A DNA stretch of 41,692 bases from an uncultured Gammaproteobacteria bacterium (GCA_964609295.1 CAZSQT010000005.1:1-41692); one strand, 5' to 3'. Shown: positions 2,563 to 21,475, numbered from the stretch's first letter. Program-made: numbers and translations. The notes: a model not told the origin generated them from the sequence alone.

Positions 2563-2619
2563 ATCGGTGAAACCGATACTGATGAGTTCATATCAAATTA
2601 TGATTAGAACGAAAAAAAC
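2555..2619 (+). ncRNA. candidate type III hammerhead ribozyme
   Basis: Stem III GTTTTT (2555-60)/AAAAAC (2614-19). Unpaired T2561. Stem I TATCGG/CCGATA (2562-78). Core CTGATGA (2579-85). Stem II GTTC..GAAC (2586-2610). Core GAAA (2611-14). Confidence 0.65.
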
Positions 2620-3478
2620 AAAAAAATTAGTTACTGTCTATATGCCCGTCTTTAATGCGTCCAAGTTTCTTCATCAATCCATCGAAAGTATCTTAAACCA
2701 AACTTATTCCAATTTTGAATTCATCATCGTCGACGACGCTTCCACCGACAATTCTTGGAAAATCATCCGCTCCTATGCCAAAAAAGATAAACGCATTATC
2801 GCGATAAAAAATAATATTAATTTAGGCGTTTCTTTAACCTCAAATATCGCTATTTCCAAAGCCAAAGGAGAATTTCTCGCCCGCATGGATGCCGACGATA
2901 TTTCCTTTTCTGATCGTCTCGAAAAACAATTAAATTATTTTAAAAAACACTCAAATACTGTCGCTATCGGTGGCCAATGTGTCGTTATCGATGAAAATAA
3001 TCACCTAATCGGTAATAAAAATTTCCCCACCGAAGCCAATAAATTAAAAGAAATGATTTTTTGGGCTATCCCCATGCAGCAACCATCAACCATGATTAAT
3101 CTAAAAAAATTACCCAAAAACTTTACTTGGTATTCTCCAAGTGTTACTTCTGCCGAAGAAATAAATCTTATGTTTCGTCTTATGCTCCATGGTAATATCG
3201 CCAATCTTTCTCAAAACATACTTTTTTATCGTCACTTAAATAATAGTCTTTCTCACAAAAATCCCAAAGAAACTTTTAAATTAACTTTAAAAAGTCGCTA
3301 CGACGCTCTTTCTTTAGGCTTTAAACCAAGTATCAAAGCTATTTTTATAAATATTCTTCAAATCATCGCCGTCCTGACAATTCCCTCTCATCTCATAAAC
3401 GAAATTTGGTGTCAACTAAGAGGTATTAAGACTAACAATAATCTATCTGTTAGAACTTATGCCCAAAGCCAAGTATAA
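2600..3478 (+). CDS. glycosyltransferase family 2
   Basis: VTVYMPVFN, IIVDDASTD and RMDADD (DxD) motifs. ATG 2600 preferred over GTG 2567 because the GT-A fold begins about 10 aa later. Confidence 0.9.
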   Translation: MIRTKKTKKLVTVYMPVFNASKFLHQSIESILNQTYSNFEFIIVDDASTDNSWKIIRSYAKKDKRIIAIKNNINLGVSLTSNIAISKAKGEFLARMDADDISFSDRLEKQLNYFKKHSNTVAIGGQCVVIDENNHLIGNKNFPTEANKLKEMIFWAIPMQQPSTMINLKKLPKNFTWYSPSVTSAEEINLMFRLMLHGNIANLSQNILFYRHLNNSLSHKNPKETFKLTLKSRYDALSLGFKPSIKAIFINILQIIAVLTIPSHLINEIWCQLRGIKTNNNLSVRTYAQSQV

Positions 3479-3489: not shown

Positions 3490-6201
3490 ATGCTAATGTC
3501 AAAAATAAAAAAACACTTTGACAAAATTTTACTCGCCCTCATTGTTCTCTTTCTTTGTCTTCGTAATTATAGTCTCGGCACCTATCTTATCGGCTGGGAC
3601 AATCTCATGCCCGAATTAAATATATTTTTAAATATCAAAAGATCACTATTGTCTGTCTGGCAATATTATCAAGGACTGGGCCTTGTCGGTGGCATGGCTC
3701 ATAGCACCGATCTTATTCGTCAGCTAATTATTCTCCCTTTCACTCTAATCCTTCCCACTAGCCTAATTAGATATCTCTATCACTTCGCCACCCTCCTTGT
3801 CGGCACCTTTGGTATCTATTTTGGTCTAAAAAAATATTTCAAAAATAGTCGCCCAATTTATTTTATCTCTTCTCTTTTTTATCTACTTAATTTTGGCACT
3901 ATCCAAAATTATTGGCCACCATTTGAACCATTTTCCACCTTTTTTGCTTTTTTCCCTTGGCTAATTTTTTCCCTCTTAAACTACCTAGATAAACCAGATA
4001 AATCAAAATTAAAAAAACTAATTATTATAAATATTCTCGCCATTCCCAGTTTTTATGTTCAAACCATCTTTTTAGTTTATCTTTTTACTCTCGCCTCAAT
4101 TCTCATCCCCTACCTTATTTTTCATCAACAACAATTCAAAATCAAAATCAAAAAAACTTTTTTTATTGGTATCTTAATCTTTTGCCTCAATGCTTTTTGG
4201 CTCCTACCTTTTGTCTACTTTCTCAAAAACGATGTCGCCAATACCCAACTTGGCATCGGTAACCTTATTGCCTCAGAAGAAACCGTTCATCGCAATGAAT
4301 ACCGTGGCACCATCTCTGATTTTCTAATTTTAAGAGGTTATTATTATGATTTTCCTTTTGCCGGTGGACTCCTAATGTCTTCTTGGTCAAACTATTTCTC
4401 TTCACCCATTATCCTAATTATTATCTATTCTCTAAGCTCTATTGTCATCCTTGGATTGACCAAAATAATTTTTAAAAAAACAAAAAATTACAAAATTATT
4501 GCCCTTATTTCACTGTTTTTTATCTCTTGTATTGCTCTTCTTTCTGCTACCCCACCATTTAATTTCATCAACGATCTAATTCGCCAAATACCTATTTTAA
4601 ATCAAGTTTTTCGCTCTCCTTTTACTAAATTTATTGTTCCTGCTAGTTTTTGTTTTACTCTTCTTTTTGCTTTCGGTCTCCAATTTGTCGCCAAATTAAA
4701 TCTAAAAATTAAAAAAATTATCTACGGCTTAATTATAATTTTAATTTTCATTTCAGCTTATCCTGCTTTTAAAGGTAATTATATTTACCCTTCAATGCGT
4801 CAACAAATACCCCAATCTTATTTTCAACTCATAAACTTTTTTAAGGACAAACCAAAAAATTCTCGCATCGCCAATTTACCTTCTGGTAGTTATTGGGGTT
4901 GGACTAATTATCGCCATGGCATTACTGGCTCTGGTTTTATTTGGTATGGCATAGAGCAACCAATTCTTGATAGAGCTTTCGATGTTTGGAGTTTAAAAAA
5001 TGAACAATATTATTGGGAACTAAACTACGCTATCCAAAAGCAAGACCAAAATCTTTTAAATCAAATCATTGAAAAATATTTTATTTCCTACCTTATTTTT
5101 GATAACGATGTTATTTTTCCCGATGAAGCAATTTATGGCAGAAATGCTATTCGTACCAGAGAAATACTAAAAGAAATGCCTAATTTAAAACTAGAAGCCC
5201 AATTTGATAATCTATATATCTATAAAACAAATTTTGATACCTCTCCTAAAATAATTAACAATCCTCAAAATATCAAACAAAATAACTTTTTTTATCAAGA
5301 TATTGCTTTCACTAATCATCATCATTACATTTCTACCAAGCAAGCTCAAATAACTTATCCTTTTGCTAATTTATTTACCAATAGACTCCAAAATGAAATA
5401 CCTTTTGAAATAAAAATTGAAAACAACACTCTCTTTATAGACGATACCCCTTTTCCTATTTATCAAACTTATTCTTTTTCTAACCCAACTCAAACAGATC
5501 TTAATCTAGAAATTGATAATCCGAAAAATTCTCAAGAAATAATCAGTGAAAATCAAAATTTTATTCGTCTTAAATCATCCTCGACCAATAATTTGCTTGG
5601 TAAATATTTCCCAGATATTTCATACGACAATTCCTATCTTATCAAAATCACTTATAGACATATAGACAATTACCCTCTTATCATAAGTGCTTTTGGTGAA
5701 CAATCAAAACAAACATTTTTCACCACCAAATTAGAAAAAAATAAAGATTGGCAAACTGCTTGGTTTGTAATCCCTAAACACAAAAATAATGCTTTTGAAA
5801 AAAGTTTAACCATTCTTTTTAACAATACTACTTTTAACAAAAAAACTACCATAAATGACATTAAAGATATAGAAATATATCAAATCCCCTACCAAGATAT
5901 TATTAACACCAAAATTATTTCTAATTCACAATATCAAAACACATCATATTTAGTCTACCCCCAATCCTACCACCCCGGTTGGCTCGCCTTCTATCTCGAT
6001 GGCTACAAACCAGTATTTCTCAAAGATCATGTCCTTGTCAACAATTGGGCCAACGGTTGGCAATTACCAATTACTAATTACCAGTTACAAAACAAAATAT
6101 ATTATTTTTTCTGGCCTCAACTCCTCCAATACCTCGGCTTTATACTAGGATTATATGTTTTGTTTCAATCTATCAATAAACCACATTCTAAGCATAGTTG
6201 A
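3490..6201 (+). CDS. large polytopic membrane protein, GT-C/AftD(DUF3367)-YfhO-like glycosyltransferase
   Basis: 903 aa. Many TM segments in the N-terminal half, a soluble domain, C-terminal QSYHPGW and HVLVNNWANGW motifs plus a last TM. Adjacent to GT2. Confidence 0.7.
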   Translation: MLMSKIKKHFDKILLALIVLFLCLRNYSLGTYLIGWDNLMPELNIFLNIKRSLLSVWQYYQGLGLVGGMAHSTDLIRQLIILPFTLILPTSLIRYLYHFATLLVGTFGIYFGLKKYFKNSRPIYFISSLFYLLNFGTIQNYWPPFEPFSTFFAFFPWLIFSLLNYLDKPDKSKLKKLIIINILAIPSFYVQTIFLVYLFTLASILIPYLIFHQQQFKIKIKKTFFIGILIFCLNAFWLLPFVYFLKNDVANTQLGIGNLIASEETVHRNEYRGTISDFLILRGYYYDFPFAGGLLMSSWSNYFSSPIILIIIYSLSSIVILGLTKIIFKKTKNYKIIALISLFFISCIALLSATPPFNFINDLIRQIPILNQVFRSPFTKFIVPASFCFTLLFAFGLQFVAKLNLKIKKIIYGLIIILIFISAYPAFKGNYIYPSMRQQIPQSYFQLINFFKDKPKNSRIANLPSGSYWGWTNYRHGITGSGFIWYGIEQPILDRAFDVWSLKNEQYYWELNYAIQKQDQNLLNQIIEKYFISYLIFDNDVIFPDEAIYGRNAIRTREILKEMPNLKLEAQFDNLYIYKTNFDTSPKIINNPQNIKQNNFFYQDIAFTNHHHYISTKQAQITYPFANLFTNRLQNEIPFEIKIENNTLFIDDTPFPIYQTYSFSNPTQTDLNLEIDNPKNSQEIISENQNFIRLKSSSTNNLLGKYFPDISYDNSYLIKITYRHIDNYPLIISAFGEQSKQTFFTTKLEKNKDWQTAWFVIPKHKNNAFEKSLTILFNNTTFNKKTTINDIKDIEIYQIPYQDIINTKIISNSQYQNTSYLVYPQSYHPGWLAFYLDGYKPVFLKDHVLVNNWANGWQLPITNYQLQNKIYYFFWPQLLQYLGFILGLYVLFQSINKPHSKHS
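6061..6088 (+). repeat. 7-mer tandem repeat (YARTTAC x4) inside CDS
   Basis: CAATTAC CAATTAC TAATTAC CAGTTAC, encoding QLPITNYQL. Confidence 0.8.
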
Positions 6202-6420
6202 CAATGCTAAACCCTGACTATCGGCTACTTTTTCTAATCTATTTTTAATATCTGTTTGTACTCTAACTACTACCATTTCTTCTTTATTTGTCTTCTTTTT
6301 ATAAACCATTTTTGTTTTTTTCATTTCCGGCAAAAAATCAGAAATATCATTTTTATCCCAAAAATTTGCTTCTTCTCTCATATTCTTAAATTCAGGAATT
6401 TTATTTAATTTTGTGTTCAT
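6151..6420 (-). CDS. BrnA/CopG-like antitoxin with C-terminal ribbon-helix-helix
   Basis: IPEFKNMREEANFWD motif and RHH-like C-terminus. Overlaps the toxin end. ATG 6420 preferred over 6447. Confidence 0.8.
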   Translation of the reverse strand: MNTKLNKIPEFKNMREEANFWDKNDISDFLPEMKKTKMVYKKKTNKEEMVVVRVQTDIKNRLEKVADSQGLALSTMLRMWFIDRLKQNI

Positions 6421-6673
6421 ATAATTTTCTCTCCTTTCGACTAGCATCTCTAGCCGTTACAACATAATAACTATTTTTATCAATTTGTGCCATAATTATG
6501 GCTAATATTCTTTTTTTATCAGTTTTTCCTAAAATTATTAATCTATTATTGTAACTTTCAAACACTTCAATCAAATTATCACAGGCTTCTTCAACTTCAT
6601 TAGACTTTACATTATGTTTTTTAATATGATTGATATTCCATTCATCCCAAATTAACTCATCAATCACTATCAT
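6401..6673 (-). CDS. BrnT-family toxin (type II TA)
   Basis: LIWDEWNINHIKKHNV N-terminus and VVTARDASRKERKLY C-terminus. Toxin-first gene order. Confidence 0.85.
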   Translation of the reverse strand: MIVIDELIWDEWNINHIKKHNVKSNEVEEACDNLIEVFESYNNRLIILGKTDKKRILAIIMAQIDKNSYYVVTARDASRKERKLYEHKIK

Positions 6674-6678
6674 AAATT

Positions 6679-6707
6679 ATTGTATAACAATGTAATACGT
6701 TTGTCAA
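6679..6707 (-). promoter_or_regulatory. BrnTA promoter with palindromic operator
   Basis: TTGACA (6707-6702), 17 bp, TACAAT (6684-6679). ATTGT-ATA-ACAAT palindrome at 6679-6691. ATG 5 nt after the -10. Confidence 0.75.
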
Positions 6708-6838
6708 TACCTCGGCTTTATTTTAATCCCCGTAGCACTTTATCTATCTTCTCGGCAATCCAAATAAATTTTTACCATAAATATTTATCATTAGTACTCA
6801 AATCCTTCCAAATACTCTTTTTCATTATTATCCTTTTA

Positions 6839-7573
6839 TCACCCTAAATTTTTAATTTCGTTATTCAAAAAAAACAAAACCTCACTCTTTAAATATTTTT
6901 TAACTTTCTTAAAATTTTCTACCGGCAAAAGAGTATTCAAATCCTGATCAATCAAAGTTTGGCTAACTTTACTATCGACAAAATCATGCAAATAAATAAA
7001 ATATTTTTTAATTTCCCACCCAGTTCTCTCTTCAATTACTTTTCCATTATATTTTAATTTACTAATAAAAAAATGATGAATATCATAAATATCCCGCCCA
7101 GCAATCGATTTCCGACGGTCATAACGATCTTTAACCGCCACTAGCTTATTGGCAAAAATAGTCTCTTTACTTTGACAATTAACCGTCCTCCCAATTTCAG
7201 GCAAAAAAACCGGCAAATAAATATTTGCTTTAACTAAAAAATCAAGAGCGTCAATTTTTAAAGTATTTCTTTCATTAGGTAAACTCTCATATTTCAAAAA
7301 AAATTCTAATGCTTCTTGACTCTCTTGTTTTAAAACAAAACCAAGTTCATCAAAAAGTTTGTGAAATTCTAACCTTATTTTATCCTTCTCCCCATCAACT
7401 TTAAAATCAAAATCAAGATCAACTGAAAATCTATCCAAAATACCCATCATTGCCGCACAAGTTCCACCTTTAAAATACAAATTAGATGACAAAAGAGGAT
7501 TATCTACAATTGCCGTTAACACTCTTAATAAATGAGCTTTGTGAATAGCATCAACTGGTCGTAAACTAATCAT
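6839..7573 (-). CDS. AbiEii-family nucleotidyltransferase toxin (type IV TA)
   Basis: FKGGT, RFSVDLDF, NKLVA and RDIYDI motifs. Confidence 0.9.
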   Translation of the reverse strand: MISLRPVDAIHKAHLLRVLTAIVDNPLLSSNLYFKGGTCAAMMGILDRFSVDLDFDFKVDGEKDKIRLEFHKLFDELGFVLKQESQEALEFFLKYESLPNERNTLKIDALDFLVKANIYLPVFLPEIGRTVNCQSKETIFANKLVAVKDRYDRRKSIAGRDIYDIHHFFISKLKYNGKVIEERTGWEIKKYFIYLHDFVDSKVSQTLIDQDLNTLLPVENFKKVKKYLKSEVLFFLNNEIKNLG

Positions 7574-8114
7574 AAATTTGTTTTTTGTAATTTTTAACTA
7601 AATTCCAATTGATTAAATCAACTCCATCAAAATGATATTGCGGTCGAAAATACAACATATCAACTACCGCCCTCTCAAGATTAGCCACCAAAAAACCTTG
7701 CTCATCTTCAGTAATTCCTAAAGTATTATGTAAAGACCTAACTTTTAATTGTCTGACTAAATAAATATTCTCTTCCAATACAAAATTATCAGAAAAAGAA
7801 GATACAAAAGTAATTTTATTAACCGGCTGATTAATCACTCCCTTCATGGACAAGACTGACTCAGTACTTAAATAAGCAAAACTATTAATTGCCCTAAAAC
7901 CAAGATTAATTGGATTAATCTGACCAAGAGGAACAACGCTATAAAAACCTTTTTGAACTCGGAAAAGAATCCCTTTTTTAACTAAACGATAAATTGTCTG
8001 ATAAAGAGTTTTCAAATTACTTATTTTCCAAAGCACTGCCAAATCTGCCGTATGAAATAACTTTTCTTTCTGTTTTAATAATATGGCTATTTTATCCATA
8101 TGTCTACTTATCAT
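7566..8114 (-). CDS. AbiEi-family antitoxin / transcriptional regulator
   Basis: N-terminal wHTH (RLVKKGILFRVQKGFY), AYLSTESVL and ERAVVDML motifs. Start may be 8099. Confidence 0.85.
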   Translation of the reverse strand: MISRHMDKIAILLKQKEKLFHTADLAVLWKISNLKTLYQTIYRLVKKGILFRVQKGFYSVVPLGQINPINLGFRAINSFAYLSTESVLSMKGVINQPVNKITFVSSFSDNFVLEENIYLVRQLKVRSLHNTLGITEDEQGFLVANLERAVVDMLYFRPQYHFDGVDLINWNLVKNYKKQIYD

Positions 8115-8128
8115 CTACTAATATGTAG

Positions 8129-8157
8129 AGGATAACACAACAATAATCTTCTGTCAA
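8129..8157 (-). promoter_or_regulatory. AbiE promoter
   Basis: TTGACA (8157-8152), 17 bp, TGnTATCCT. TCTAC-N6-GTAGA inverted repeat at 8114-8129. Confidence 0.6.
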
Positions 8158-9312
8158 TTATTTTAATCCCCGTAGCACTTTATCTATCTTCTCGGCAATC
8201 CAAATAAACTCCTCTTCTTTCTTTCCCTTAGTCGTTTCACAAGGACTCCCTAGTCTAATTCCCGATGGTTTAAGTGGGCTACCTTCGTCGTGAGGAATGG
8301 TGTTGGCGTTACAATAAATCCCCTCCTCTTCCAACGCCACTGCTGCTTCTTTTCCTTTCTCCTTACCAACATCCACCACCATCAAATGATTTTCTGTCCC
8401 AAAAACTCGATAACCTTTGTTCTTCAAAGTCTCTGCCAAAACTTTAGCATTAAGTTTCACTTGATTAGCATATTTTATATAATCCATTGTCATCGCCTCC
8501 CCTAGTGCAATAGCAATTCCAGCGATATTATTGACATGTGGCCCACCCTGAAGCCCAGGAAAAACCGCCTTATCAATTTTTTTTGCCAAATCCTTATCTC
8601 GAATCAAACCCTTTTTGGTTATTCCAATTATCGCCCCTCTTGGCCCTCTCAAAGTCTTGTGTGTCGTTGTCATAACTACATCGACATAATCCACTGGACT
8701 CATATGTTCTCCCGTCGCCACCAATCCTGCAATATGAGAAATATCCGCCACTAGCCAGGCACCCACACTATCAGTAATTTCCCCAAACTTTTTAAAATCC
8801 AATTCAAAAGGATAAGCTGTCGTCCCTGCAAAAATCAATTTTGGTTTTTCTGCCTTGACCAATTTCGCTAATTTTTTATAATCAATTCGACCATCTTTTT
8901 CTACATCATATTGGACACTATCAAAATATTTTCCCGAAAAAGTAATCCGTGGATGACCATGAGTCAAATGTCCCCCTGCTGACAATCTCAAACCACAAAT
9001 TTTATCTCCCTTTTCCAAAAGAGCAAACAAAATTGCGCTATTGGCTGGACTACCCGAATAAGCCTGCACATTTGCCTCCTCAAAACCAAACAATTCTTTG
9101 GCTCTATCTATCGCCAATTGCTCTATCTCATCAACAAAGCGGTTACCCTGATAATACCTCTTTCCCACATAGCCTTCTGCATATTTGTTAGTCAAACAAC
9201 TCCCCACCGCTTCCAAAACCGCTCCCGAAACAATGTTTTCACTAGGAATCAATTGTATTCCAGTAAATTGTCTCCTCTCTTCTTTGTCAATTAAATTAAA
9301 TATTTTGTCCAT
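8158..9312 (-). CDS. glyA: serine hydroxymethyltransferase
   Basis: LIPSEN, NKYAEGY, GGHLTHG, TTTHKTLRGPRG (PLP lysine) and FPGLQGGP motifs. Confidence 0.97.
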   Translation of the reverse strand: MDKIFNLIDKEERRQFTGIQLIPSENIVSGAVLEAVGSCLTNKYAEGYVGKRYYQGNRFVDEIEQLAIDRAKELFGFEEANVQAYSGSPANSAILFALLEKGDKICGLRLSAGGHLTHGHPRITFSGKYFDSVQYDVEKDGRIDYKKLAKLVKAEKPKLIFAGTTAYPFELDFKKFGEITDSVGAWLVADISHIAGLVATGEHMSPVDYVDVVMTTTHKTLRGPRGAIIGITKKGLIRDKDLAKKIDKAVFPGLQGGPHVNNIAGIAIALGEAMTMDYIKYANQVKLNAKVLAETLKNKGYRVFGTENHLMVVDVGKEKGKEAAVALEEEGIYCNANTIPHDEGSPLKPSGIRLGSPCETTKGKKEEEFIWIAEKIDKVLRGLK

Positions 9313-9898
9313 GTCCTAGTTTATCAAGAATTTCTTCAAATATCTCTTCTACTGACTGATTTCCATTGATGACTATTTTTTTGACCGGATCATTTTTGAC
9401 CAACCATTGATATTTTTTTCTAATCTTGATTAACTTTTTCTCTTTTTCAAAAATAGTTTTACTAGTTCTCCCTTTACCAATCCTCTCCATCGCCACCTTT
9501 GGTGCTGTATCAACAAAAATCACCAAATCTGGCTCAATCCCAATTTTTTTGTTAACTTCCAACATCCAATTTCTATAATGACTATGACTATAAGCTACCG
9601 TTGACCAATAATATCTATCACACAAAACCATCTTTCCTTCTTCCAAATTAGGGCTAATCACTCTATTTACATGATCACATCTATCAGCGATAAAACACAC
9701 CTCCAAGGCCAACGGATCAATCTTTTTTTTACCATTCAGCACATCTTCGATGAACAAACCAACCCCTTGTCTTTGATGCTCTCGAGTCATTATTAACTTT
9801 TTCCCTTTTTTCTTCAAAAAATTATACAATTTTTCTATCTGTGTTGATTTACCACAACCATCAATCCCCTCAAAAACAATAAATTTCCCTTTTTTCAT
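9296..9898 (-). CDS. tmk: thymidylate kinase
   Basis: FIVFEGIDGCGKST P-loop and CDRYYWSTVAY. Confidence 0.95.
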   Translation of the reverse strand: MKKGKFIVFEGIDGCGKSTQIEKLYNFLKKKGKKLIMTREHQRQGVGLFIEDVLNGKKKIDPLALEVCFIADRCDHVNRVISPNLEEGKMVLCDRYYWSTVAYSHSHYRNWMLEVNKKIGIEPDLVIFVDTAPKVAMERIGKGRTSKTIFEKEKKLIKIRKKYQWLVKNDPVKKIVINGNQSVEEIFEEILDKLGHGQNI

Positions 9899-10004: not shown

Positions 10005-10706
10005 TTAAATTCTTGATAATAACTGCGCATTTTTAATTGTTTTCCATTTACCACAACTCAGCTTCCCCTCCCAACAAATCTTCTCTGTCTCACAAGTCGG
10101 CCCAGCATTTTGAAAAAGATTTGGGGCTACTTTTTTAACCTGAGCCAACATCATGTTAGCCAATTGTCTAATTTCCCATTGTGCCCTCACACAACATCTC
10201 TCGGCAAAAAAGTTCAACAAAGACCTAGCATTCATCGTTACTACAATCTTTGTCTCACAAGCATTTGGCAAAATATAACGCGCATCCTCGGGCTTAATAC
10301 CCAAACTAATCATTTTTTTATACTGTTTTTCAATCAAATTCATTGTCTTTTGATATTCTTTTTTGATGTCTTTTTGTCCCGCCACTTCTACTGGAGTAAT
10401 ATATTTTAATTTCTTTTTGGACAAATCAACATATCGCTGCGACTGTTGTGAAAAAGAAGCGATTCTATGTCTAACCAATTGGTGAGTCAAAGCTCTCGAT
10501 ACTCCCTCAATGGCAAAAGTAAAGCTAGCATGCTCAATCGTCGAAGTGTGTCCTGAACCCAAAACCTGCTTGATCAATCGCGCTTGTGTCTCTTTATCAA
10601 TCTTTTTCCTCAAACCTATCGCTCCTATTGGACTATAGCATTGTCTAATCGCTGCTGTTACATTTTTTTCTGCCTCTTTGGTCCATGCTACCAATTTTAC
10701 TTTCAT
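10005..10706 (-). CDS. thyX: FAD-dependent thymidylate synthase
   Basis: GHTSTIEH, RHRIASFSQQSQRY ThyX motif, AQWEIR. Confidence 0.96.
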   Translation of the reverse strand: MKVKLVAWTKEAEKNVTAAIRQCYSPIGAIGLRKKIDKETQARLIKQVLGSGHTSTIEHASFTFAIEGVSRALTHQLVRHRIASFSQQSQRYVDLSKKKLKYITPVEVAGQKDIKKEYQKTMNLIEKQYKKMISLGIKPEDARYILPNACETKIVVTMNARSLLNFFAERCCVRAQWEIRQLANMMLAQVKKVAPNLFQNAGPTCETEKICWEGKLSCGKWKTIKNAQLLSRI

Positions 10707-12255: not shown

Positions 12256-14342
12256 TTTTTTCTCCTTTTTGAACTTTTAACTTTTGCCTTATAACCTATC
12301 TCTTTGTCACATTTTGGGCAATACTCATGCTCACCGGGCAAATACCCGTGGATTGGACAAACAGAAAAAGTTGGCGTAATCGAAAAATATGGTAAATGAT
12401 ATTTTGAAGAAATCATCTTTACTAACTTTTTGACTGATTCAATATCTGGCAAACTTTCAGTCATAAAACCATGCAAAACGGTTCCTCCATTGTATCGAGT
12501 CTGCAAATCATCTTGGTGATCCAAGGCTTCAAAAAAATCATCAGTATAATTGACTGGCAAATGAGTAGAATTAGTATAAAAAGGTGGTTCTTTTTTCTTT
12601 TTATAATTTTCCTCGTTGACACAAACAATATCTTTAAACTTTGTCTTATCTAGTCTGGCAAAACGATAGCCTGTTCCTTCAGCTGGTGTTGCCTCAAGAT
12701 TAAACATTTCCCCTGTCTCTGTCTGATAAGTCAAGATTTTACTCCTCATATAATCCATCACCTCTTTAGCAAATTCTTTGGCTTCTGGATCAGCAATTCC
12801 CTTACCCATCATATTAAGCAAAGCCTCATTCATTCCATCTAGTCCAATAGTATTAAAATGGTTTCTCCAATAAACTCCATTTCTATTGTAAATCTCAGTT
12901 AAATAATAACTACAATATGGATAAAGTCCTTTTTCGGTCAACATTTCTACTTCATCTCTTTTGATAACCAAAGAATCTTTCGCCAAATCCATCATCTTTG
13001 CCAATCGAGAGAAAAATTTTCTTTTAGCTTGTTCCAAATTAGTTGATTCTTTTTTGGCCAAATAACCAATTCTTGGCAAATTGATAGTTACTACCCCAAT
13101 TGAACCAGTCAAAGGATTAGCCGCAAACAAACCACCTCTTTTTCTTAAAACATTATTGTCCAATCTTAAACGACAACACATTGATCGTGCGTCGTCAGGA
13201 CTCATATCCGAATTAACAAAATTTGAAAAATAAGGAATCCCGTATTTTCTAGTCATTTCCCATACCGACTCTAAATTTTTGTTGTCCCAATCAAAATCTT
13301 TAGTAATTGAATAAGTTGGAATTGGAAAAGTAAATACTCGACCTTGCGAATCACCATCCATCATCACTTCGGCAAAAGCTCGATTAAACATATCTATCTC
13401 TTTTTGAAAATCCTTGTATTTAGCATTGACTGGTTTTCCACCAATAATAACTACTTCCTCACCTACCATTTTGCTTGGTTTAAGATCAAGAGTTACATTG
13501 GTAAAAGGAGTCTGAAAACCAACCCTTGTTGGTACATTCATATTAAAGATAAACTCCTGCATCGCCTGTTTTACTTGATCATAATTTAATTTGTCATATT
13601 TAATAAATGGTGCCAAATAAGTATCAAAATTAGACACTGCTACCGCCCCTGCTACTTCTCCTTGGATAGTGTAAAAGAAATTGACCAATTGACCCAAAGC
13701 TGTTCTCAAATGCTTAGGTGCTCCGCTATTAACCTTTCCCGAGACACCCCCAAAACCCTTAATCAAAATATCTTTAAGATCCCAACCAGTACAATAAGGT
13801 GACAAAAGTGCCAAATCATGAATATGAATATCACCAGACAAATGAGCTTTTCTGATATCACGAGTGTATATCTTATTCATCCAATAATTTGCCGAAATTA
13901 TAGAAGCTACATGATTATTCAAACCTTGCAAAGAATAAGTCATATTAGCATTTTCTTTGACTCGCCAATCACTTTTTTGCAAATATTTATCAATCAATTC
14001 ATCCGAATCTACCAAGCTAGAAATATCTCTCATCTTTTTGTGCAATTCACGATAAAGCTTAAAAGACTTATAAACATCATCAAAATTATTTTCCTGCAAT
14101 ACTTTTTCAATCAAATCCTGTATCTGTTCCACTTCAGGGATAATCGTTCCGTTAAATCTTTCTTCCATTTGTTCAACCACTTTTTTAGCAATCAAAAAAA
14201 CATCATTACCCTTATCTGTTTCCCCAGCCGATTTAAAAGCCGACTTAATTACTTTAATAATTTTTGCTGGTCTAAAAACGACGACTTTACCATTTCGTTT
14301 TTTTACCTTTTTGATGATTGTTTTTATTTTTTTATCTTCCAT
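12252..14342 (-). CDS. nrdD: class III ribonucleoside-triphosphate reductase, large part (ATP cone + barrel + Zn site)
   Basis: N-terminal ATP cone, IHIHDL, SMCCRL finger loop, EATPAEG, CPIHG..CPKC. Lacks the C-terminal RxxGY loop. Confidence 0.95.
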   Translation of the reverse strand: MEDKKIKTIIKKVKKRNGKVVVFRPAKIIKVIKSAFKSAGETDKGNDVFLIAKKVVEQMEERFNGTIIPEVEQIQDLIEKVLQENNFDDVYKSFKLYRELHKKMRDISSLVDSDELIDKYLQKSDWRVKENANMTYSLQGLNNHVASIISANYWMNKIYTRDIRKAHLSGDIHIHDLALLSPYCTGWDLKDILIKGFGGVSGKVNSGAPKHLRTALGQLVNFFYTIQGEVAGAVAVSNFDTYLAPFIKYDKLNYDQVKQAMQEFIFNMNVPTRVGFQTPFTNVTLDLKPSKMVGEEVVIIGGKPVNAKYKDFQKEIDMFNRAFAEVMMDGDSQGRVFTFPIPTYSITKDFDWDNKNLESVWEMTRKYGIPYFSNFVNSDMSPDDARSMCCRLRLDNNVLRKRGGLFAANPLTGSIGVVTINLPRIGYLAKKESTNLEQAKRKFFSRLAKMMDLAKDSLVIKRDEVEMLTEKGLYPYCSYYLTEIYNRNGVYWRNHFNTIGLDGMNEALLNMMGKGIADPEAKEFAKEVMDYMRSKILTYQTETGEMFNLEATPAEGTGYRFARLDKTKFKDIVCVNEENYKKKKEPPFYTNSTHLPVNYTDDFFEALDHQDDLQTRYNGGTVLHGFMTESLPDIESVKKLVKMISSKYHLPYFSITPTFSVCPIHGYLPGEHEYCPKCDKEIGYKAKVKSSKRRKK

Positions 14343-15225: not shown

Positions 15226-15837
15226 ATGCCAACAATAAAAAAAATAAAAAAGAAAGAAACATCAAACAAAAAAGAATATCTTTTTAAACTTTCTTCACAA
15301 GAACCCACCTTTGACGCCTCTTGGTTTGTCATTAATACTTATTCTGGTCACGAATACAAAGTTATCGATGCTCTACAAACTAGAATCAAAACCATGGGTC
15401 TAGAAGACAAAATCTTCCAAGCTATCGTTCCCATCCAATCAAAAATGGTCATTAGACGCGGTCAAAAAGTCAAAACTCAAGAAAAAACATTTCCTGGTTA
15501 TGTTTTAGTCCAAATGGTTCTTACTGATGATTCTTGGGTCACCGTCCGTACTACTCAAGGTGTCACTGGTTTTATCGGTATTGACAACAAACCTTCCCCT
15601 ATTTCCCAAAAAGAAGTCGATAAAATTCTTGCCACTATTGTTGAAGACAAACCCAAATTTCAAACTCCTTTTTCTGTCGGCGATGTCGTCAAGATTACCA
15701 ATGGTGCTTTTGCTGATTTTATGGGAACTATCGACTCTGTTGACCAAGAAAAAGGTAAAGTTAGAGTCCTTGTTTCCTTTTTTGAAAGAGAAACTCCTGT
15801 TGAATTGGATTTTTTACAAGTTACAAAAGAAATTTAA
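15226..15837 (+). CDS. nusG: transcription termination/antitermination factor NusG
   Basis: WFVINTYSGHE, FPGYVLV, KOW domain, RETPVEL. Confidence 0.97.
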   Translation: MPTIKKIKKKETSNKKEYLFKLSSQEPTFDASWFVINTYSGHEYKVIDALQTRIKTMGLEDKIFQAIVPIQSKMVIRRGQKVKTQEKTFPGYVLVQMVLTDDSWVTVRTTQGVTGFIGIDNKPSPISQKEVDKILATIVEDKPKFQTPFSVGDVVKITNGAFADFMGTIDSVDQEKGKVRVLVSFFERETPVELDFLQVTKEI

Positions 15838-15843
15838 AATATT

Positions 15844-16269
15844 ATGCCTAAAAAAATCAAAACCATCGTTAAATTGGCTATTCAAGCTGGTACTGCCAAT
15901 CCTGCTCCCCCAGTTGGTACCGCTCTTGGTCCTCACGGTATCAAAATCATGGATTTTTGCCAAGAATTTAACGAAAAAACCAAAGAAATGCGCGGCTCTG
16001 TTATTCCCGCCGTTATTACCATTTACGAAGACAGAAGTTTTGATTTTATCATCAAAAAACCACCGGTTTCCGATATGATTAAAAAAATGTCTGGTCTTGC
16101 CAAAGGTTCTTCTACTCCTGGTCGAGAAAAAATCGGTAAATTAACCATGGCTCAAGTCGAACAAATTGCCAAAGACAAAATGCCAGACTTAAATACCAAA
16201 GACCTAGAAGCCGCCCAAAAAATAGTTATGGGTACCGCCCGATCCATGGGCGTCGAAATTATTAATTAA
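15844..16269 (+). CDS. rplK: 50S ribosomal protein L11
   Basis: [15 protein letters not shown] and GTARSMG. Confidence 0.98.
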
Positions 16270-16379
16270 AAGTAAAACAAAATCGAATATTGTTTTTATC
16301 AAGCCTTCAACGTGGTCACACATTTACCAGCGAAGATAAAAATAATTGAGAATTTGTAAAATTATAAATTAAAAACAAT

Positions 16380-17111
16380 ATGACAAAAAAAAGCAAAACC
16401 ACTGAAATTGTCGAAGAGACAACTCAAAAAGTGGAAGAACAAATCGTCCAAGACGACAAAAAAGTTCAAAAGGCTGAAAAAGAAGTCATCGAAGAAAAAA
16501 TCGAAAAGACCGAAAAAAAAGCCAAAGTTAGAGGTAGCAAATATCAAAAAGCCAAAAAACTAATTGATATAAACAAATATTATCCTCTCAAAGAGGCTAT
16601 TTCTTTAGTTAAAAAAGCATCTTTTTCTAAATTCGAAGGCAAAATTGAAGCTCATGTCAATACTTTTGATATTGGTACCATCGGTGAAATCACTTTCCCT
16701 CATTTAGAAACCGCTTCCAAAAAAATAGTCATTTTAACTGACAAAATTTTAGAAGAAATTAAAGATAACAAGATAAATTTTGACATTTTAATCGCCACCC
16801 CCTCAACTATGCCCAAGCTTCTTCCTTTAGCCAAAATTCTTGGCCCAAAAGGTTTAATGCCTAATCCCAAAAATGGTACTTTAACCGACAAACCAGAGGA
16901 TGCCCTCAAAAAATTATCCGTTGCCAAAACTATAATTAAAACAGAAAAAAAAGCACCTGTAATTCACACAATTGTTGGTAAAACTTCACAAGATGACAAA
17001 GAATTAATTGCCAATGTAGAAGAATTAATTAAAATTGTCAAACCTACCAAAATCAAAAAACTTTGTCTTTGTGCCACCATGGGCCCATCTGCCAAAGTCG
17101 AAATCAAGTAA
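16380..17111 (+). CDS. rplA: 50S ribosomal protein L1 (internally shortened, charged N-extension)
   Basis: ILGPKGLMPNPKNGT and TMGPS. Follows rplK. Confidence 0.93.
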   Translation: MTKKSKTTEIVEETTQKVEEQIVQDDKKVQKAEKEVIEEKIEKTEKKAKVRGSKYQKAKKLIDINKYYPLKEAISLVKKASFSKFEGKIEAHVNTFDIGTIGEITFPHLETASKKIVILTDKILEEIKDNKINFDILIATPSTMPKLLPLAKILGPKGLMPNPKNGTLTDKPEDALKKLSVAKTIIKTEKKAPVIHTIVGKTSQDDKELIANVEELIKIVKPTKIKKLCLCATMGPSAKVEIK

Positions 17112-17157
17112 TATCATTACAATTCCATAACTGAGAAAAAATATTTTAAATAAAATA

Positions 17158-17231
17158 GTTGTTCTCCCCTTGCCTGCCCCGCATTGGCGGGGTCAAGGGG
17201 AGACACCCCGCAACAGCGGGGAGAGGGGTTT
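17158..17231. repeat. GC-rich REP-like palindromic element, copy 1, with nested palindrome
   Basis: GTTGTTCTCCCCTT..TCAAGGGGAGA..CCCC.CAACAGCGGGGAGAGGGGTTT. Matches 20988-21041 apart from an insert of about 20 bp. Confidence 0.85.
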
Positions 17232-17279
17232 GTTATTTACCTCTTGGTTATTACTCCTCTTATTGTATAATGAGTAAAT

Positions 17280-17792
17280 ATGAAAGCAGCAAAAAGACCC
17301 GATTGGGATTCATTCTGGTTTACTCTCGCCCTTATGTACTCCACCAGAGGTACCTGTGATAGATTAAGAGTTGCCTGTATTATCGTCAAAAACAAAAGGC
17401 TAGTTGGTGCCGGTTACAACGGCTCCCCTCACGGACAACCTCATTGTGATGATGTCGGCCATCTTATGGTTGATGGTCATTGTGAAAGGACTTTACACAG
17501 TGAAGAAAACGCTATTCTCAATACCGCCAGAGAAGATTTAAGAGATGCCACTGCTTATGTTACCGCTACCCCCTGCTATCGTTGTACCAGACTTTTAATC
17601 AACGCTGGTATCAAAAAAATATATTTCCTTAGTACTTACAAAAACTCCCGTGGTCGCGAAATGATAGAAGAACTTGCTAAAACTTCTGGTGTTGAGCTAA
17701 TCCAAAAAGACTACCAACCCAAAGAATTGATCAACGAAGCTATCACTCGTCTCGAAGGCCCCGGCGGTTCTCTTCATCAAAAAGAAGACTGA
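17280..17792 (+). CDS. dCMP deaminase / ComEB family
   Basis: RPDWD, GYNG, HSEENA and PCYRC zinc motifs. Confidence 0.92.
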   Translation: MKAAKRPDWDSFWFTLALMYSTRGTCDRLRVACIIVKNKRLVGAGYNGSPHGQPHCDDVGHLMVDGHCERTLHSEENAILNTAREDLRDATAYVTATPCYRCTRLLINAGIKKIYFLSTYKNSRGREMIEELAKTSGVELIQKDYQPKELINEAITRLEGPGGSLHQKED

Positions 17793-18598
17793 ATAATCAA
17801 ATCCAATAATTCTGTAAAATTTATTCCAACACACTGAGCTTCTTTTGGTAAAAGTGAATTTGGGGTAAGCCCCGGTATCATATTTATCTCAAGCAAATAA
17901 GGAATATTATTTCTTATAATATAATCCAATCGAGCAAATCCTCGACATCCCATTTCTCTAAAAATCAAAGATGATATTTCCTGTATTTTTTTTGCCACTT
18001 CATCAGGAATCCTTGCCGGCACAATTTCTTTACATTTACCAATTACATATTTGGACTCATAATCAAAAAATCCATTTTTTGGACATATTTCAATTAATGG
18101 CAAAGCCAAAGCATCTTTTATAACCCCACAAGAAACTTCAATTCCTTCAATATATTCTTCCGTAATTACCATGTCATCATATTTTTTAGCGAAATTAATT
18201 GCTTGTGCTAAGTCTTTTATATTTTTTACAATACTCACTCCATAGCTCGAACCACCCTGTGCTGGTTTTACCACACAAGGTATTTCTTTTGTATCCTCTG
18301 CCACCACTACTCCTAATTTTTTAGCAAATTTTTTAAAAGCAATTTTATCCATACCCAATTTACATGCGCTAGAACCACTACCTGTAAATCTAATTCCTTT
18401 GTCTTCAAATTCTCTTTGAATCTGTCCATCTTCACCATACTTACCATGAAGAGCAATAAAGATTATATCGGGATTTTCCTCAATAATTTCATATTTATTT
18501 TTGTCCAAATTTCTAATCACCTCATTACCACTCATAATAGAAACATCGTGCTCCGCTCCCCCACCTCCCATCAAAACCTTTACTCTTATTTTTCCCAT
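17777..18598 (-). CDS. ddl: D-alanine--D-alanine ligase
   Basis: GG..AEHDVS, LHGKYGEDG, VKPAQGGSSYG, FDYESKY, LEINMIPG. ATG 18598 preferred, which removes the overlap with murF. Confidence 0.95.
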   Translation of the reverse strand: MGKIRVKVLMGGGGAEHDVSIMSGNEVIRNLDKNKYEIIEENPDIIFIALHGKYGEDGQIQREFEDKGIRFTGSGSSACKLGMDKIAFKKFAKKLGVVVAEDTKEIPCVVKPAQGGSSYGVSIVKNIKDLAQAINFAKKYDDMVITEEYIEGIEVSCGVIKDALALPLIEICPKNGFFDYESKYVIGKCKEIVPARIPDEVAKKIQEISSLIFREMGCRGFARLDYIIRNNIPYLLEINMIPGLTPNSLLPKEAQCVGINFTELLDLIIQSSF

Positions 18599-18604
18599 TC
18601 TGAT

Positions 18605-18614
18605 ATTATATAAT
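18605..18614. promoter_or_regulatory. palindromic bidirectional -10 element between ddl and murF
   Basis: ATTATATAAT contains TATAAT on both strands, 6 and 5 nt from the two ATGs. Confidence 0.7.
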
Positions 18615-18619
18615 AAGAT

Positions 18620-19738
18620 ATGCAAAAATATCTCGCCACTTTTGTCCTTTCTTACCTCCGCTTCTTTGCTAAACTCCAAATTTTAAAACTAAAATTACTC
18701 AACCCAAAACTAAAAATCATTGGTATTACTGGTTCTGCTGGTAAATCATCTGTCGTTTATGCTCTTGATCATGTTTTAAGCTCAAAATACAAAACCATCA
18801 CCACCAAAAATTACAATTCCGAATCAGGTATCCCCCTAAGCATCTTAAATCTCAAAATCAAAAACTATTCTGCTTTAGATTGGCTTAAAATATTGATACT
18901 AACTCCAATTAAATTTTTAACATCTTGGTCAAAAATTGATTTTATTATTGCCGAAATGGGCATCGATAGCATCAAATCCCCCAAAAATATGGATTATCTC
19001 CTTGGTATCATCAAACCTGATATCGGTATTTTTACTAGTCTTAGTACCGTTCATATGGCCAACTTTGACAACAATATCGACAATATTGGTCACGAAAAAG
19101 CTAAATTGATCAATTCTCTCCCATCATCCGGTCTGGCTATTTTTCCCAAAAATCTCCAAAAATATATCCATACCAAAACCCAAATTATCAATATTCCCTC
19201 AGGTATTCAAACAAAACAAATCGCCAATATTATTGCCAAAAAATTTGATATCTCTCCTAATTTTGACAACTTACCCCTCCCCCCTTCTCGTTGTTCTATT
19301 TTTCAAGGTAAAAATAACACGACCATTGTCGATAGTAGCTACAATTCATCTCTTGTTGCCACCACTGAAATGCTCAAACTCCTAAACACCTATCCATCTC
19401 CCCGCATTGCCATTCTCGGTGATATGAGAGAAATTGGCCAAAAATCAAACGAAGAACACCAAAAACTTTACAAAATTGCCCAAAAATATGCTGATATTAT
19501 TATCGGTGTCGGTCCAGAAACTCAAAAAATATTCAAAACTGCCTATCAATATTGGTGGCAAGTTCCTCTCAATTTTCCCCAAAAATCAACCATTTTAGTC
19601 AAAGGCTCTCAAAATACTATTTATCTAGAAGAACTAGTCAAGTCTTTACTAAAAAACAAATCTGACCACAAATTACTCTGCCGTCAATCTCCCTATTGGC
19701 AAAAAATAAAACAACAATTCCAATCTACCAATTCCTAA
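18620..19738 (+). CDS. murF: UDP-MurNAc-tripeptide--D-Ala-D-Ala ligase (compact)
   Basis: GITGSAGKSS, NYNSESG, DSSYNSS, LGDMREIG, LVKGSQ. Divergent from ddl. Confidence 0.88.
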   Translation: MQKYLATFVLSYLRFFAKLQILKLKLLNPKLKIIGITGSAGKSSVVYALDHVLSSKYKTITTKNYNSESGIPLSILNLKIKNYSALDWLKILILTPIKFLTSWSKIDFIIAEMGIDSIKSPKNMDYLLGIIKPDIGIFTSLSTVHMANFDNNIDNIGHEKAKLINSLPSSGLAIFPKNLQKYIHTKTQIINIPSGIQTKQIANIIAKKFDISPNFDNLPLPPSRCSIFQGKNNTTIVDSSYNSSLVATTEMLKLLNTYPSPRIAILGDMREIGQKSNEEHQKLYKIAQKYADIIIGVGPETQKIFKTAYQYWWQVPLNFPQKSTILVKGSQNTIYLEELVKSLLKNKSDHKLLCRQSPYWQKIKQQFQSTNS

Positions 19739-19766
19739 TTACCAGTTACCAGTTACTAATTACCAA
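19729..19766. repeat. 7-mer tandem repeat (YARTTAC) between convergent stops
   Basis: CAATTCC TAATTAC CAGTTAC CAGTTAC TAATTAC CAA. Confidence 0.8.
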
Positions 19767-20310
19767 CCCCATACTCCTTATCTTTTTTCATTTCCTTTTC
19801 TATCAAGCGCCTCAAAAAAACTGATTTTGGTATCATCTTGTGGTTTGATACCCAATCCAAATAATTCAAAATAGAAGAATTAACAAAAAAATTAAATCTC
19901 AAATCAATCAATTTAGCTGTTTGCTTCAAACTATTATCAATCACCTTCACCATATTACTTTTATTGTACGGTGCCATTATCAACCTGTTGTTATTCATCC
20001 ATTTAAGAAAAACTTGTTTACCTTTGTCCTTATACAAAGCAATTACCGGTTTATTTAATTCCATTGCCTTCACGATAACAAATCCCATTGACATACTATG
20101 TCCTGTCACTTCTACTACTACCACATCAGCCTTTTTAATTTTATCCAAAGCTGTCTTATAGCAAGAATCATAAGAAAAACCTTTTTTAATCCACTTTAAA
20201 ACCGAATCATCAATTAGTTGAGTCTTTTCATTCAATACTCCAAAAATATTCTCAAACAATTGAGTATCTTTCAACACAAACCTAGGTGAAGCCACAAAAT
20301 AAACCTTCAC
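19756..20310 (-). CDS. nucleoside 2-deoxyribosyltransferase-like domain fused to C-terminal RHH
   Basis: MKVYFVAS, ADVVVVEVT.HSMSMG, NKPVIALY. C-terminal RFNFFV...KSVFLRRLI resembles an RHH. Confidence 0.65.
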   Translation of the reverse strand: MKVYFVASPRFVLKDTQLFENIFGVLNEKTQLIDDSVLKWIKKGFSYDSCYKTALDKIKKADVVVVEVTGHSMSMGFVIVKAMELNKPVIALYKDKGKQVFLKWMNNNRLIMAPYNKSNMVKVIDNSLKQTAKLIDLRFNFFVNSSILNYLDWVSNHKMIPKSVFLRRLIEKEMKKDKEYGVGN

Positions 20311-20374
20311 GACTTATTATACTACAAATTACCCATATACAAAAGCCTTTTTAACTGATACAATACCCTTTATA

Positions 20375-20457
20375 ACCGAAGACAGTAGGTACAAACATAA
20401 ATCCTACCGAGGAAATCTTTTTTAATATTGATCCCCTCTTCGGTCGGGGATTTTTTT
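20375..20457 (+). promoter_or_regulatory. ribosomal protein L10 leader with attenuator-like hairpin
   Basis: CCGAAGACAGTAGG..TAA..CCTACCGAGG matches the L10-leader pattern, followed by ATCCCC..GGGGAT+T7. TGnTACAAT upstream at 20356-64. Confidence 0.85.
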
Positions 20458-20465
20458 ATAACACT

Positions 20466-20978
20466 ATGCCTGCAACCAAAAAAATAGAAAAAGTTTCGCA
20501 AGTAGTCGAAAACTTAAAAAAATCAAAATCTGTTGCTTTAGTCCAATATCAAGGTCTTACTGCTAATGATATTGCCGAGCTTAGGGCAAAAATAAAAGAA
20601 ACAGGTGGTTCCATGGAAGTTGTCAAAAACACTCTCATTACCAAAGCTTTAAAAGAAATTGGTATCGATTTACCAGAAATACTAACCGGACCAACCTCTT
20701 TAACTTATTGTTATGACGATGAAGTCGGTCCCCTCAAAGAGATAGACAAAATCAACAAAGCCAAAGAAATCACTAGTTTCAAATACGGTGTTTACGAAGG
20801 TAAACTTCTTCTCCAAGATGAACTTACCTCATTTTTAAATTTACCTTCAAAATCAACTTTGTATGCCCAACTAGTTGGTGGCTTAGTTAATCCTCTTCAG
20901 AGGTTGGTTTATGCCTTCAAATTCAACCAAACTCAACTAGTTTTAACTCTTAAAGCTATTTCAGAAAAACAATCTTAA
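20466..20978 (+). CDS. rplJ: 50S ribosomal protein L10
   Basis: YQGLT, ELR, VVKNTL, LTGPT, LPSK. Confidence 0.96.
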   Translation: MPATKKIEKVSQVVENLKKSKSVALVQYQGLTANDIAELRAKIKETGGSMEVVKNTLITKALKEIGIDLPEILTGPTSLTYCYDDEVGPLKEIDKINKAKEITSFKYGVYEGKLLLQDELTSFLNLPSKSTLYAQLVGGLVNPLQRLVYAFKFNQTQLVLTLKAISEKQS

Positions 20979-20987
20979 CACACTAAG

Positions 20988-21041
20988 GTTGTTCTCCCCT
21001 TTTCAAGGGGAGAAACCCCTCAACAGCGGGGAGAGGGGTTT
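20988..21041. repeat. GC-rich REP-like palindromic element, copy 2
   Basis: Near-identical to 17158-17231 without the insert. Lies between rplJ and rplL. Confidence 0.85.
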
Positions 21042-21079
21042 AAAACAATAAGTTAAAAATTATAAATTAAATAATAACT

Positions 21080-21475
21080 ATGGAAGATAACAAAAAATTA
21101 CAAGCAATTATCGATGATATTGCTAAACTTTCCGTTTTAGAGCTTTCCGAATTAGTCAAAGCTCTCGAAGAAAAATTTGATGTCAAAGCTGTTGCTGCTG
21201 CACCTGCTGCTGCTGCACCTGCTGCTGGTGGCGATGCCACTGCTGGGGCTCCCGCAGAAGAAAAGAGCGAATTTGATGTCACCATCACCAATGCTGGTGC
21301 CAACAAAATTGCTGTCATCAAAGCCGTTCGTGAATTTAAGCCCGAATTAGGACTTAAAGAAGCCAAAGATCTCGTTGACGCTTGCCCTGCTGCCATCGGT
21401 ACTATGAAAAAAGATGCCGCTGCTGAAGCTAAAGCTAAACTAGAAGAAGCTGGCGCTCAAGTGGAGTTAAAGTAA
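21080..21475 (+). CDS. rplL: 50S ribosomal protein L7/L12
   Basis: Ala-rich hinge, [27 protein letters not shown]. Confidence 0.98.

Follow-up and report, generated by a model that had tools for sequence, protein, structure and literature searches.

Two toxin-antitoxin operons flanked by direct repeats of different length at a convergent gene junction

In many bacteria, defence genes and toxin-antitoxin (TA) genes are concentrated at hotspots. The way in which small cassettes that lack mobility genes arrive there is, to our knowledge, mostly unknown, and the same question is raised by a metagenome-assembled contig (CAZSQT010000005.1) that was analysed at its entire length of 41,692 bp and is called the window here. 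In the window, two TA operons, BrnTA and AbiE, lie in tandem between glyA, which encodes serine hydroxymethyltransferase, and a convergent gene for a large polytopic membrane protein, which we refer to as GT-C-like. Each operon is flanked by its own pair of direct repeats. The relatives of the window's proteins belong to Patescibacteria/Microgenomates, and their records are mostly labelled Shapirobacteria or Woesebacteria. We found an origin in two separate insertions, with target duplications of different length and with BrnTA precisely present or absent, to be well supported by the sequence comparisons. As for the process, insertion into an overlapping pair of genes by host-mediated illegitimate recombination appears probable to us.

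Direct repeats and an empty allele at the junction

We observed that a 17-bp repeat (CAATACCTCGGCTTTAT) occurs exactly at 6127-6143, where it specifies Q Y L G F I in the GT-C-like protein, and again at 6705-6721. The 561 bp between the two copies (6144-6704, minus strand) hold BrnTA. The AbiE cassette of 1389 bp (6769-8157, minus strand) lies between exact copies of a 51-bp repeat at 6718-6768 and 8158-8208. In the right copy glyA has its functional 3' end, which encodes F I W I A E K I D K V L R G L K and a stop codon at 8158-8160, and the left copy is a non-coding duplicate of the last 16 codons and stop of this gene. A preliminary description of the window had reported both pairs of repeats, and they were exact to the base. 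The G+C content was 25.8% in the BrnTA cassette and 29.2% in the AbiE cassette, as against 31-40% in the flanks.

For a window of the same composition, chance would be expected to give about 0.04 such exact repeats (17 bp or longer, up to 3 kb apart), and the alignment score of the 17-bp repeat was matched by 0/200 shuffles of the flanks. The 51-bp repeat is the longest direct repeat of the window, and here too none of the 200 shuffles scored as high. Homology ended sharply at all four repeat ends (the four comparisons of the flanks were within the range of the shuffles). The possibility that the repeats are stubs of a longer and older duplication was rejected, since no diverged homology could be seen past their ends. 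The two repeats differ in sequence and overlap only by 4 nt, TTAT. The hexamer CTCGGC was considered as a motif common to both, and was dropped as it is at about chance level by a rough estimate.

When the frame of the GT-C-like gene (3490-6201, plus strand, 903 aa, an ORF call) was read through the right 17-bp copy, it continued into QYLGFILIPVALYLSSRQSK*, with the stop codon at 6765-6767. The stretch 6705-6767 (plus strand) is thus the putative remnant of an ancestral C-terminus that has been severed from its gene. The present 3' end of the gene (6144-6201, about 17-19 codons and the stop) comes from the BrnTA cassette, where it is antisense to the 3' end of brnA. The 51-bp repeat spans from the glyA stop codon to one base beyond the alternative GT-C-like stop.

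We attempted to score the two tails against the tails of 42 relatives. This was non-discriminating (the alternative tail was reached by 1/500 shuffles and the present tail by 18/500), and the question was settled instead by a natural allele. The 90% cluster containing P0001 has five members. P0001, P0241, P0242 and P0244 end in ...GFILGLYALFQSINKPHSKH(S/G)R, which is the window's present tail with one substitution, while P0243 (896 aa) ends in ...QYLGFILIPVVLYLSSRRSK, the predicted alternative tail with 2 substitutions. In the 883 residues that precede the tail, the identity of P0243 is 99.0-99.3% with P0001 and P0244, 92% with P0241 and 88.6% with the window protein. The deepest split therefore has the BrnTA-derived tail in both of its branches, and P0243, the empty allele, falls within the 99% group. 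The earlier proposal that removal of BrnTA would restore another ending of the GT-C-like protein agrees with the translation and with this allele. The proposal that the cassettes can be removed at their repeats was supported for BrnTA, as the allele with the empty tail is so close to the BrnTA-tailed ones. Either way, whether by precise loss or by an empty allele having been recombined in, BrnTA is present or absent exactly at the repeat boundaries.

We also examined the glyA side of the junction. The window's glyA is 98% (97.9%) identical to P0250 and 94% to P0251, and P0251 ends in ...FIWIAEKIDKVLQGLK. Three point changes in window 6705-6768 are enough to encode both the P0243 tail in the plus frame and the P0251 glyA tail on the opposite strand, each of them altering the product of one frame and leaving that of the other unchanged. 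This is the pattern that a still-overlapping gene pair under double constraint would show, and together with the P0243 tail it bears out the view that the cassettes entered a formerly overlapping convergent pair. P0243 is recorded on a contig of 9794, which is also the figure of the longest contig of the P0251 cluster, and P0241 and P0250 likewise both show 34500. A further glyA relative, P0256 (on a 2929-bp contig), is 97.9% identical to P0251 and ends in ...KVLKKI instead of ...KVLQGLK. This suggests another rearrangement at the same junction, within the last four codons of glyA.

The two insertions appear to differ in age. The BrnTA-derived tail is common to lineages that are 12% apart in the GT-C-like protein. 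The best non-self match of AbiEii among 4225 matches was only 74% identical, whereas the glyA of a relative was at 98%, and the 51-bp copies are identical although the left copy is non-coding. From these comparisons BrnTA appears to be older than AbiE, which looks recent and is seen only in the lineage of the window. The GT-C-like tail would then have been displaced before AbiE came in, and it had not been kept by the BrnTA insertion. The close match between the 51-bp repeat and the ancestral overlap, as had been described previously, is correct in its coordinates. However, with a young AbiE and a tail that had already been replaced, preservation of the tail does not explain it. This match may be due to chance, or else AbiE together with its 51-bp repeat may have arisen where the overlap was still intact, in another genome, and then have arrived by recombination.

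The junction and repeat-flanked inserts in relatives

To see the state of the junction elsewhere, we scanned one genome per species with an alignment of the GT-C-like protein and obtained 80 loci. In 31 of these, the GT-C-like gene and glyA converge and both stop codons could be placed. These are distant genomes, with 31-57% identity in the membrane protein. The ends of the two genes overlap in six of the 31 loci, by 4 bp in L006 and L019, by 14 bp in L029, by 68 bp in L020 and L022, and by 95 bp in L011. The overlapping empty arrangement therefore exists in relatives, as the preliminary description had anticipated. The other 25 loci hold gaps of 28-129 bp (five loci), 195-612 bp (11 loci) or 742-5663 bp (nine loci).

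The contents of these gaps are varied, as seen from the 37 ORFs that were scanned. A DUF5652 gene was found in L005, L007, L014 and L024, Ddl-like ATP-grasp genes in L016, L028, L033, L042 and L048, and DUF559, HIT and GNAT genes once each. IS200-like Y1 fragments were present in L025 (3419-4027), L032 (12636-13010) and L038 (9315-9869). The TA genes comprised a RelE/YafQ-like toxin with a small upstream partner (L016), a RelE/YafQ-like toxin with an RHH partner (L042), a HEPN+MNT pair (L034) and an antitoxin-like DUF6290 gene (L048). In L076, a BrnTA pair follows immediately after the GT-C-like gene. The junction of the GT-C-like gene and glyA is a hotspot with varied contents, as had been claimed from the window.

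Two of these loci showed further features. L016 has two RelE/YafQ-like TA pairs, one just upstream (9333-9876) and one just downstream (12739-13271) of the GT-C-like gene, and the stop codon of the downstream toxin overlaps the GT-C-like stop by 4 bp. The Y1 fragments of L025 sit among copies of a GGAACAGTCGCGACTGTTCC-like palindrome that recurs in the locus, an arrangement resembling REP/RAYT elements.

Across the 80 loci plus the window, 1.32 Mb in total, we found 109 pairs of exact direct repeats (15 bp or longer, 200-5000 bp apart). Most of them are explained by paralogous genes or palindromic elements. Three inserts resembled those of the window. In L041 (349-1165), an MNT+HEPN pair lies between the gene of a GT2 glycosyltransferase and the GT-C-like gene, and is flanked by a 27-bp repeat with 1 mismatch that begins at the GT2 stop codon (0/200 shuffles). 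In L051 (8272-9897), a second contig of the same metagenome-assembled genome bin, an AbiE-like pair is found at this same junction with a duplication that is exact over 10 bp and aligned over about 21 (6/200 shuffles). In the inferred empty sequence, the duplications of L041 and L051 share 8 nt, and the flanks of the two loci are 98.1% and 89.6% identical, with different TA cassettes between them. In L053 (4467-5165), the last 20 codons of an M23-peptidase-like gene are present twice, as a repeat that is exact over 61 bp and reaches 63 bp if one mismatch, in the stop codon, is allowed. The copies surround an ORF of 137 aa, which matched no Pfam, PADLOC or NCBIfam family.

No flanking repeats were found at the TA cassettes of L016 (both), L042, L034 and L048. 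The BrnTA of L076 has a 9-bp repeat which was not significant (30/200 shuffles reach it) and was not counted; its -35 box also straddles the boundary. Other genes were also seen between direct repeats. L059 has a PD-(D/E)XK_3 gene (4809-5290) and a Cas2/PaaX-like gene (15389-16082), each between host-like direct repeats, of about 50 bp (diverged) and of 17 bp, and L036 (959-2730) has a secreted-looking ORF of 501 aa between direct repeats of about 75 bp. No mobility gene lay between the repeats in L059 or L036.

Gene content of the cassettes and their surroundings

By domain content and gene order, both pairs are ordinary members of the BrnTA and AbiE families. In BrnT/BrnA systems, which are of type II and in which the antitoxin neutralises a ribonuclease toxin, the toxin gene comes first, and in the window brnT (6401-6673, minus strand) lies upstream of brnA (6151-6447, minus strand), with the two genes overlapping. 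BrnA was recognized as a BrnA/CopG antitoxin (Pfam PF12441, E 1.6e-11, 45.2 bits). BrnT was barely above the cutoff of its Pfam family (PF04365, E 1.5e-08, 35.3 bits with the cutoff at 34.5, covering residues 9-81 of 90), and no PADLOC or NCBIfam model matched it. AbiEii (6839-7573, minus strand), in the AbiE family of type IV TA and abortive-infection systems a DUF1814 nucleotidyltransferase toxin, matched both Pfam (PF08843, E 4.1e-19, 69.9 bits) and PADLOC (AbiEii, 3.1e-20). No NCBIfam family matched BrnA or AbiEii. AbiEi (7566-8114, minus strand) was recognized by PADLOC (AbiEi, 1.2e-24) and remained under the cutoffs of Pfam (AbiEi_4, 24.9 bits, cutoff 25) and NCBIfam (TAA_AbiEi, 49.9 bits, cutoff 150).

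The antitoxin gene abiEi precedes abiEii with an overlap of 8 nt. In AbiE systems, an AbiEi antitoxin and regulator is encoded upstream in a bicistronic operon, according to a passage of PMC3985639, and a passage of PMC7319586 describes autoregulation via inverted repeats in the promoter. By eye, short inverted and direct repeats can be seen at about 8100-8130 in the window, between the -10 box and the start codon.

The two best promoter-like sites in 5900-8400 are one for each cassette, both on the minus strand. That of BrnTA (6707..6679) is TTGACA-17-TACAAT (11/12), and that of AbiE (8157..8129) is TTGACA-17-TATCCT with TG (10/12). TTGACA occurs 45 times in the window, counting both strands. 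In both cassettes it sits on the boundary, as noted earlier, and in BrnTA the TTG of the -35 box is donated by the duplicated host sequence (CAA of the repeat) and not by the cassette. A -35 box on the boundary could not be upheld as a general feature of promoter-to-stop cassettes, since the AbiE-like cassette of L051 has TTGACT about 40 nt inside its boundary and since only 3-4/10 of the TA cassettes beside the GT-C-like gene have significant flanking repeats at all. The related claim that the units run minimally from promoter to stop was right for BrnTA, which extends 7 nt beyond the brnA stop, and not for AbiE, which extends 70 nt beyond the abiEii stop. In the BrnT operons of both the window (6671-6684) and L076 (13657-13672), only 5-10 nt separate the TACAAT -10 box from the start codon, so that the mRNA of the toxin would have little or no leader in both.

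The GT-C-like protein matched no Pfam and no NCBIfam family. Its nearest clusters in a protein atlas carry GT-C_AftD (in 15% of members) or YfhO (84%), and the label GT-C-like is to be taken as a lead only. We found 262 homologues, mostly from Patescibacteria. The gene is preceded by one for a GT2 glycosyltransferase (2567-3478, plus strand). On the other side, glyA (8158-9312, minus strand; PF00464, 2.9e-137) is followed in the window by tmk (9296-9898, minus strand) and thyX (10005-10706, minus strand). Pfam also identified ruvA, ruvB and ruvC in the window. Further away, the rplK-rplA and rplJ-rplL genes are set 3.3 kb apart (15844-21475), with a dCMP deaminase, Ddl, a Mur ligase and an unknown ORF in between. 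A 39-bp repeat (95% identical) occurs after rplA (17193) and after rplJ (21003), and an L10 leader is present at 20358-20465.

Routes of insertion and known parallels

The history that we favour would begin with an ancestor in which the 3' ends of the convergent GT-C-like gene and glyA had 50 bp in common. Two TA operons, each self-contained and with its own promoter, would have entered in separate events, duplicating 17 bp of the target in the case of BrnTA and 51 bp in the case of AbiE. BrnTA would have come first, severing the last 13 codons of the GT-C-like gene and giving it a new ending from the antisense of brnA. It is polymorphic in a population of 99% identity, in which one allele has a clean empty site. 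AbiE would have followed in the lineage of the window. The insertions were probably host-mediated illegitimate recombination, either by template switching at a fork with re-entry upstream or by capture at a widely staggered break followed by fill-in. Homology-facilitated illegitimate recombination in naturally competent bacteria is a parallel. Loss, and probably also spread among kin, would occur by homologous recombination between the repeats or in the flanks, and TA addiction would select against cells that delete a cassette via its repeats. This guard against deletion may be the reason why TA operons are found between such repeats.

Our preference for a host-mediated process comes from the lack of a recombinase and of terminal motifs, together with duplications that range from 17 to about 63 bp. 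None of the 39 window ORFs scanned against Pfam belonged to an integrase or transposase family, in agreement with the preliminary description. A search for terminal inverted repeats in the cassettes gave nothing convincing (the best arms in contact with a cassette end were 13 nt at 77%), and the four cassettes compared had no end motifs in common. The boundaries did not carry one att core each, the 17-bp and 51-bp repeats being different sequences, nor was the target duplication of a fixed length (17 and 51 bp). The range of lengths argues against an ordinary transposase or site-specific integrase. A tRNA-type integration site was also rejected, since the Rfam and tRNA scans gave nothing in or near 6000-8300, and the only tRNA genes are at 30.7-30.9 kb.

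Several points weigh against this history. Among the ten TA cassettes beside the GT-C-like gene, six are without a flanking repeat and one has a marginal one, so that repeats may be a mark of some events only, or be limited to young ones. The absence of AbiE from relatives rests on a protein search and not on the DNA of these relatives, and the placing of P0243 and P0251 on one contig rests solely on the equal figures of 9794. The empty allele P0243 could stem from allelic replacement instead of excision. That the 51-bp repeat spans the former overlap to within one base is, on this account, a coincidence. Finally, the identical hexamer CTCCTC at both outer edges of the 64-bp source stretch is left unexplained.

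Some of these points are better accommodated by allelic replacement, which we consider possible, though not likely. The minimal mobile elements of Neisseria are variable genes between conserved flanking genes, exchanged by homologous recombination. If the window's cassettes were exchanged in a similar manner, the repeats would be what is left of one ancient founding event, possibly in a genome whose overlap was still intact, and would not be made anew by each insertion. In that case the agreement of the 51-bp repeat with the old overlap would be accounted for despite the older BrnTA. The order of the flanking genes is conserved across the 31 loci while the junction contents vary, L041 and L051 have different cassettes between near-identical flanks, and the window carries ruvABC. 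The gene trees also disagree between the two sides of the junction: in the membrane protein, P0241 goes with P0243 (92%) to the exclusion of the window (88%), and glyA groups the window with P0250 (97.9%), both being about 94% from P0251. However, replacement leaves the first origin of any duplication unexplained, and each of four cassettes has a duplication of its own (17, 51, 27 and about 21 bp, respectively), taken from precisely the site at which that cassette lies. In addition, AbiE has no close donor in the protein collection, where the best match is at 74%, and the identical 51-bp copies fit a recent duplication in place.

A more speculative extension, which we regard as rather unlikely, is that TA cassettes, along with other selfish or defence cassettes of these small-genome bacteria, are generally mobile without any recombinase of their own. 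Following an illegitimate, host-driven insertion that duplicates tens of bases of the target, the duplicated tag would serve as an address, and RecA-type recombination would release a circle made of the cassette and one tag, leaving the site perfectly restored. After uptake by a sibling cell, the circle would re-enter at the same address, and addiction would retain the insert.

We see little probability that BrnTA and AbiE are non-autonomous elements moved in trans, either by a transposase with long and variable duplications or by an integrase elsewhere, in which case the repeats would be att sites. Repeats over the 3' end of a gene are typical of att sites made by integrases, and IS200-like Y1 fragments are present at the same junction in L025, L032 and L038. 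Y1 transposases, however, make no target duplication. The only transposases known to us with long variable duplications are those of IS1634 and IS1549. Parts of PMC2266710 give variable duplications of 8 to 514 bp for these two elements. Against such an origin, the four cassettes have neither terminal inverted repeats nor common end motifs, the two repeats differ where one att core would be expected three times, the window ORFs include no transposase or integrase, and 6100-8230 had no DNA match in the phage and plasmid collections.

It is quite improbable that duplication came first, with the 64-bp overlap region being tandemly duplicated via CTCCTC microhomology, the genes thereby separated, and the cassettes landing in the spacer. 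The hexamer was recognized post hoc. It abuts the duplicated region on its outer left side (6121-6126) and on its right side (8209-8214), and occurs 25 times on the plus strand of the window, or about 6e-4 per position. Microhomology-mediated tandem duplication is described as a general process in PMC13167724 and in a 2026 bioRxiv preprint. But the three partial copies present today (17, 64 and 51 bp) have no internal CTCCTC, two rounds of duplication and two exact deletions would be needed, and P0243 is in the simple single-copy state. That the repeats or the tandem arrangement are an artefact of assembly is highly improbable. The window is a metagenome-assembled contig, but BrnT, AbiEii and glyA each have identical protein records on more than one contig (4, 3 and 3, respectively), with several sources among them, and the tail that stems from BrnTA is seen again in four diverged alleles. 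Both genes adjoining the repeats are intact, and assemblers commonly work with k-mers longer than 51 bp.

Among known systems, the arrangement would seem to act most like the minimal mobile elements of Neisseria (a term used in PMC3787668 and PMC1797815) and like TA islets of the ccdO157 type. It shares with the former a fixed junction of conserved genes with different small cargo in each genome, and cassettes without mobility genes for which exchange via the flanks is plausible. It differs in the exact target duplications of 17 to about 63 bp that bracket the inserts, in its target, which is the overlapping 3' ends of two genes, and in its host, which is of a Patescibacteria lineage. The ccdO157 system, between folA and apaH in E. 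coli, is a chromosomal TA islet without mobility genes. As there, a lone TA operon lies between conserved genes and the site is empty in other strains; here, in contrast, there are target duplications, two tandem cassettes and a replaced neighbour C-terminus.

Other systems are less similar. Islands made by integrases, and cis-mobilisable elements, duplicate the 3' end of their target gene, and the window resembles them in that the repeats cover the last codons of a gene that stays whole and in the tandem accumulation at one site. Unlike them, it has no integrase, and its two different repeats overlap by 4 nt and vary in length with each event. Integron gene cassettes are likewise small, often TA and stacked at one place, but the window has no intI and no attC-like imperfect palindromes, and its cassettes have their own promoters. 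The long target duplications of variable length are as in IS1634 and IS1549 (PMC2266710), which encode a transposase and have defined ends, whereas the window cassettes have neither. What sets the arrangement apart is the combination of long variable target duplications, a target of overlapping gene ends and the rewritten C-terminus of a neighbour. In a word-matching search of open-access text, we found no description of repeat-flanked, recombinase-less TA cassettes in Patescibacteria.

The locus thus provides a case at base level, in which the target can be seen along with two nested duplications that differ in length and, in a population of 99% identity, a naturally occurring empty allele. 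It also shows a cost to the host, as an insert rewrote the C-terminus of a host gene, and the further examples at the second junction of the GT-C-like gene in relatives indicate that this is not a lone event. If the duplications come from a host process and not from a dedicated enzyme, they would represent an overlooked route of gene flow in streamlined genomes with overlapping genes, and would explain why addictive modules survive between such repeats. Should the reading of enzyme-free mobile cassettes be true, overlapping or abutting gene ends would become defence hotspots. TA pairs flanked by duplicated gene ends are a signature that can be searched for in metagenomes.

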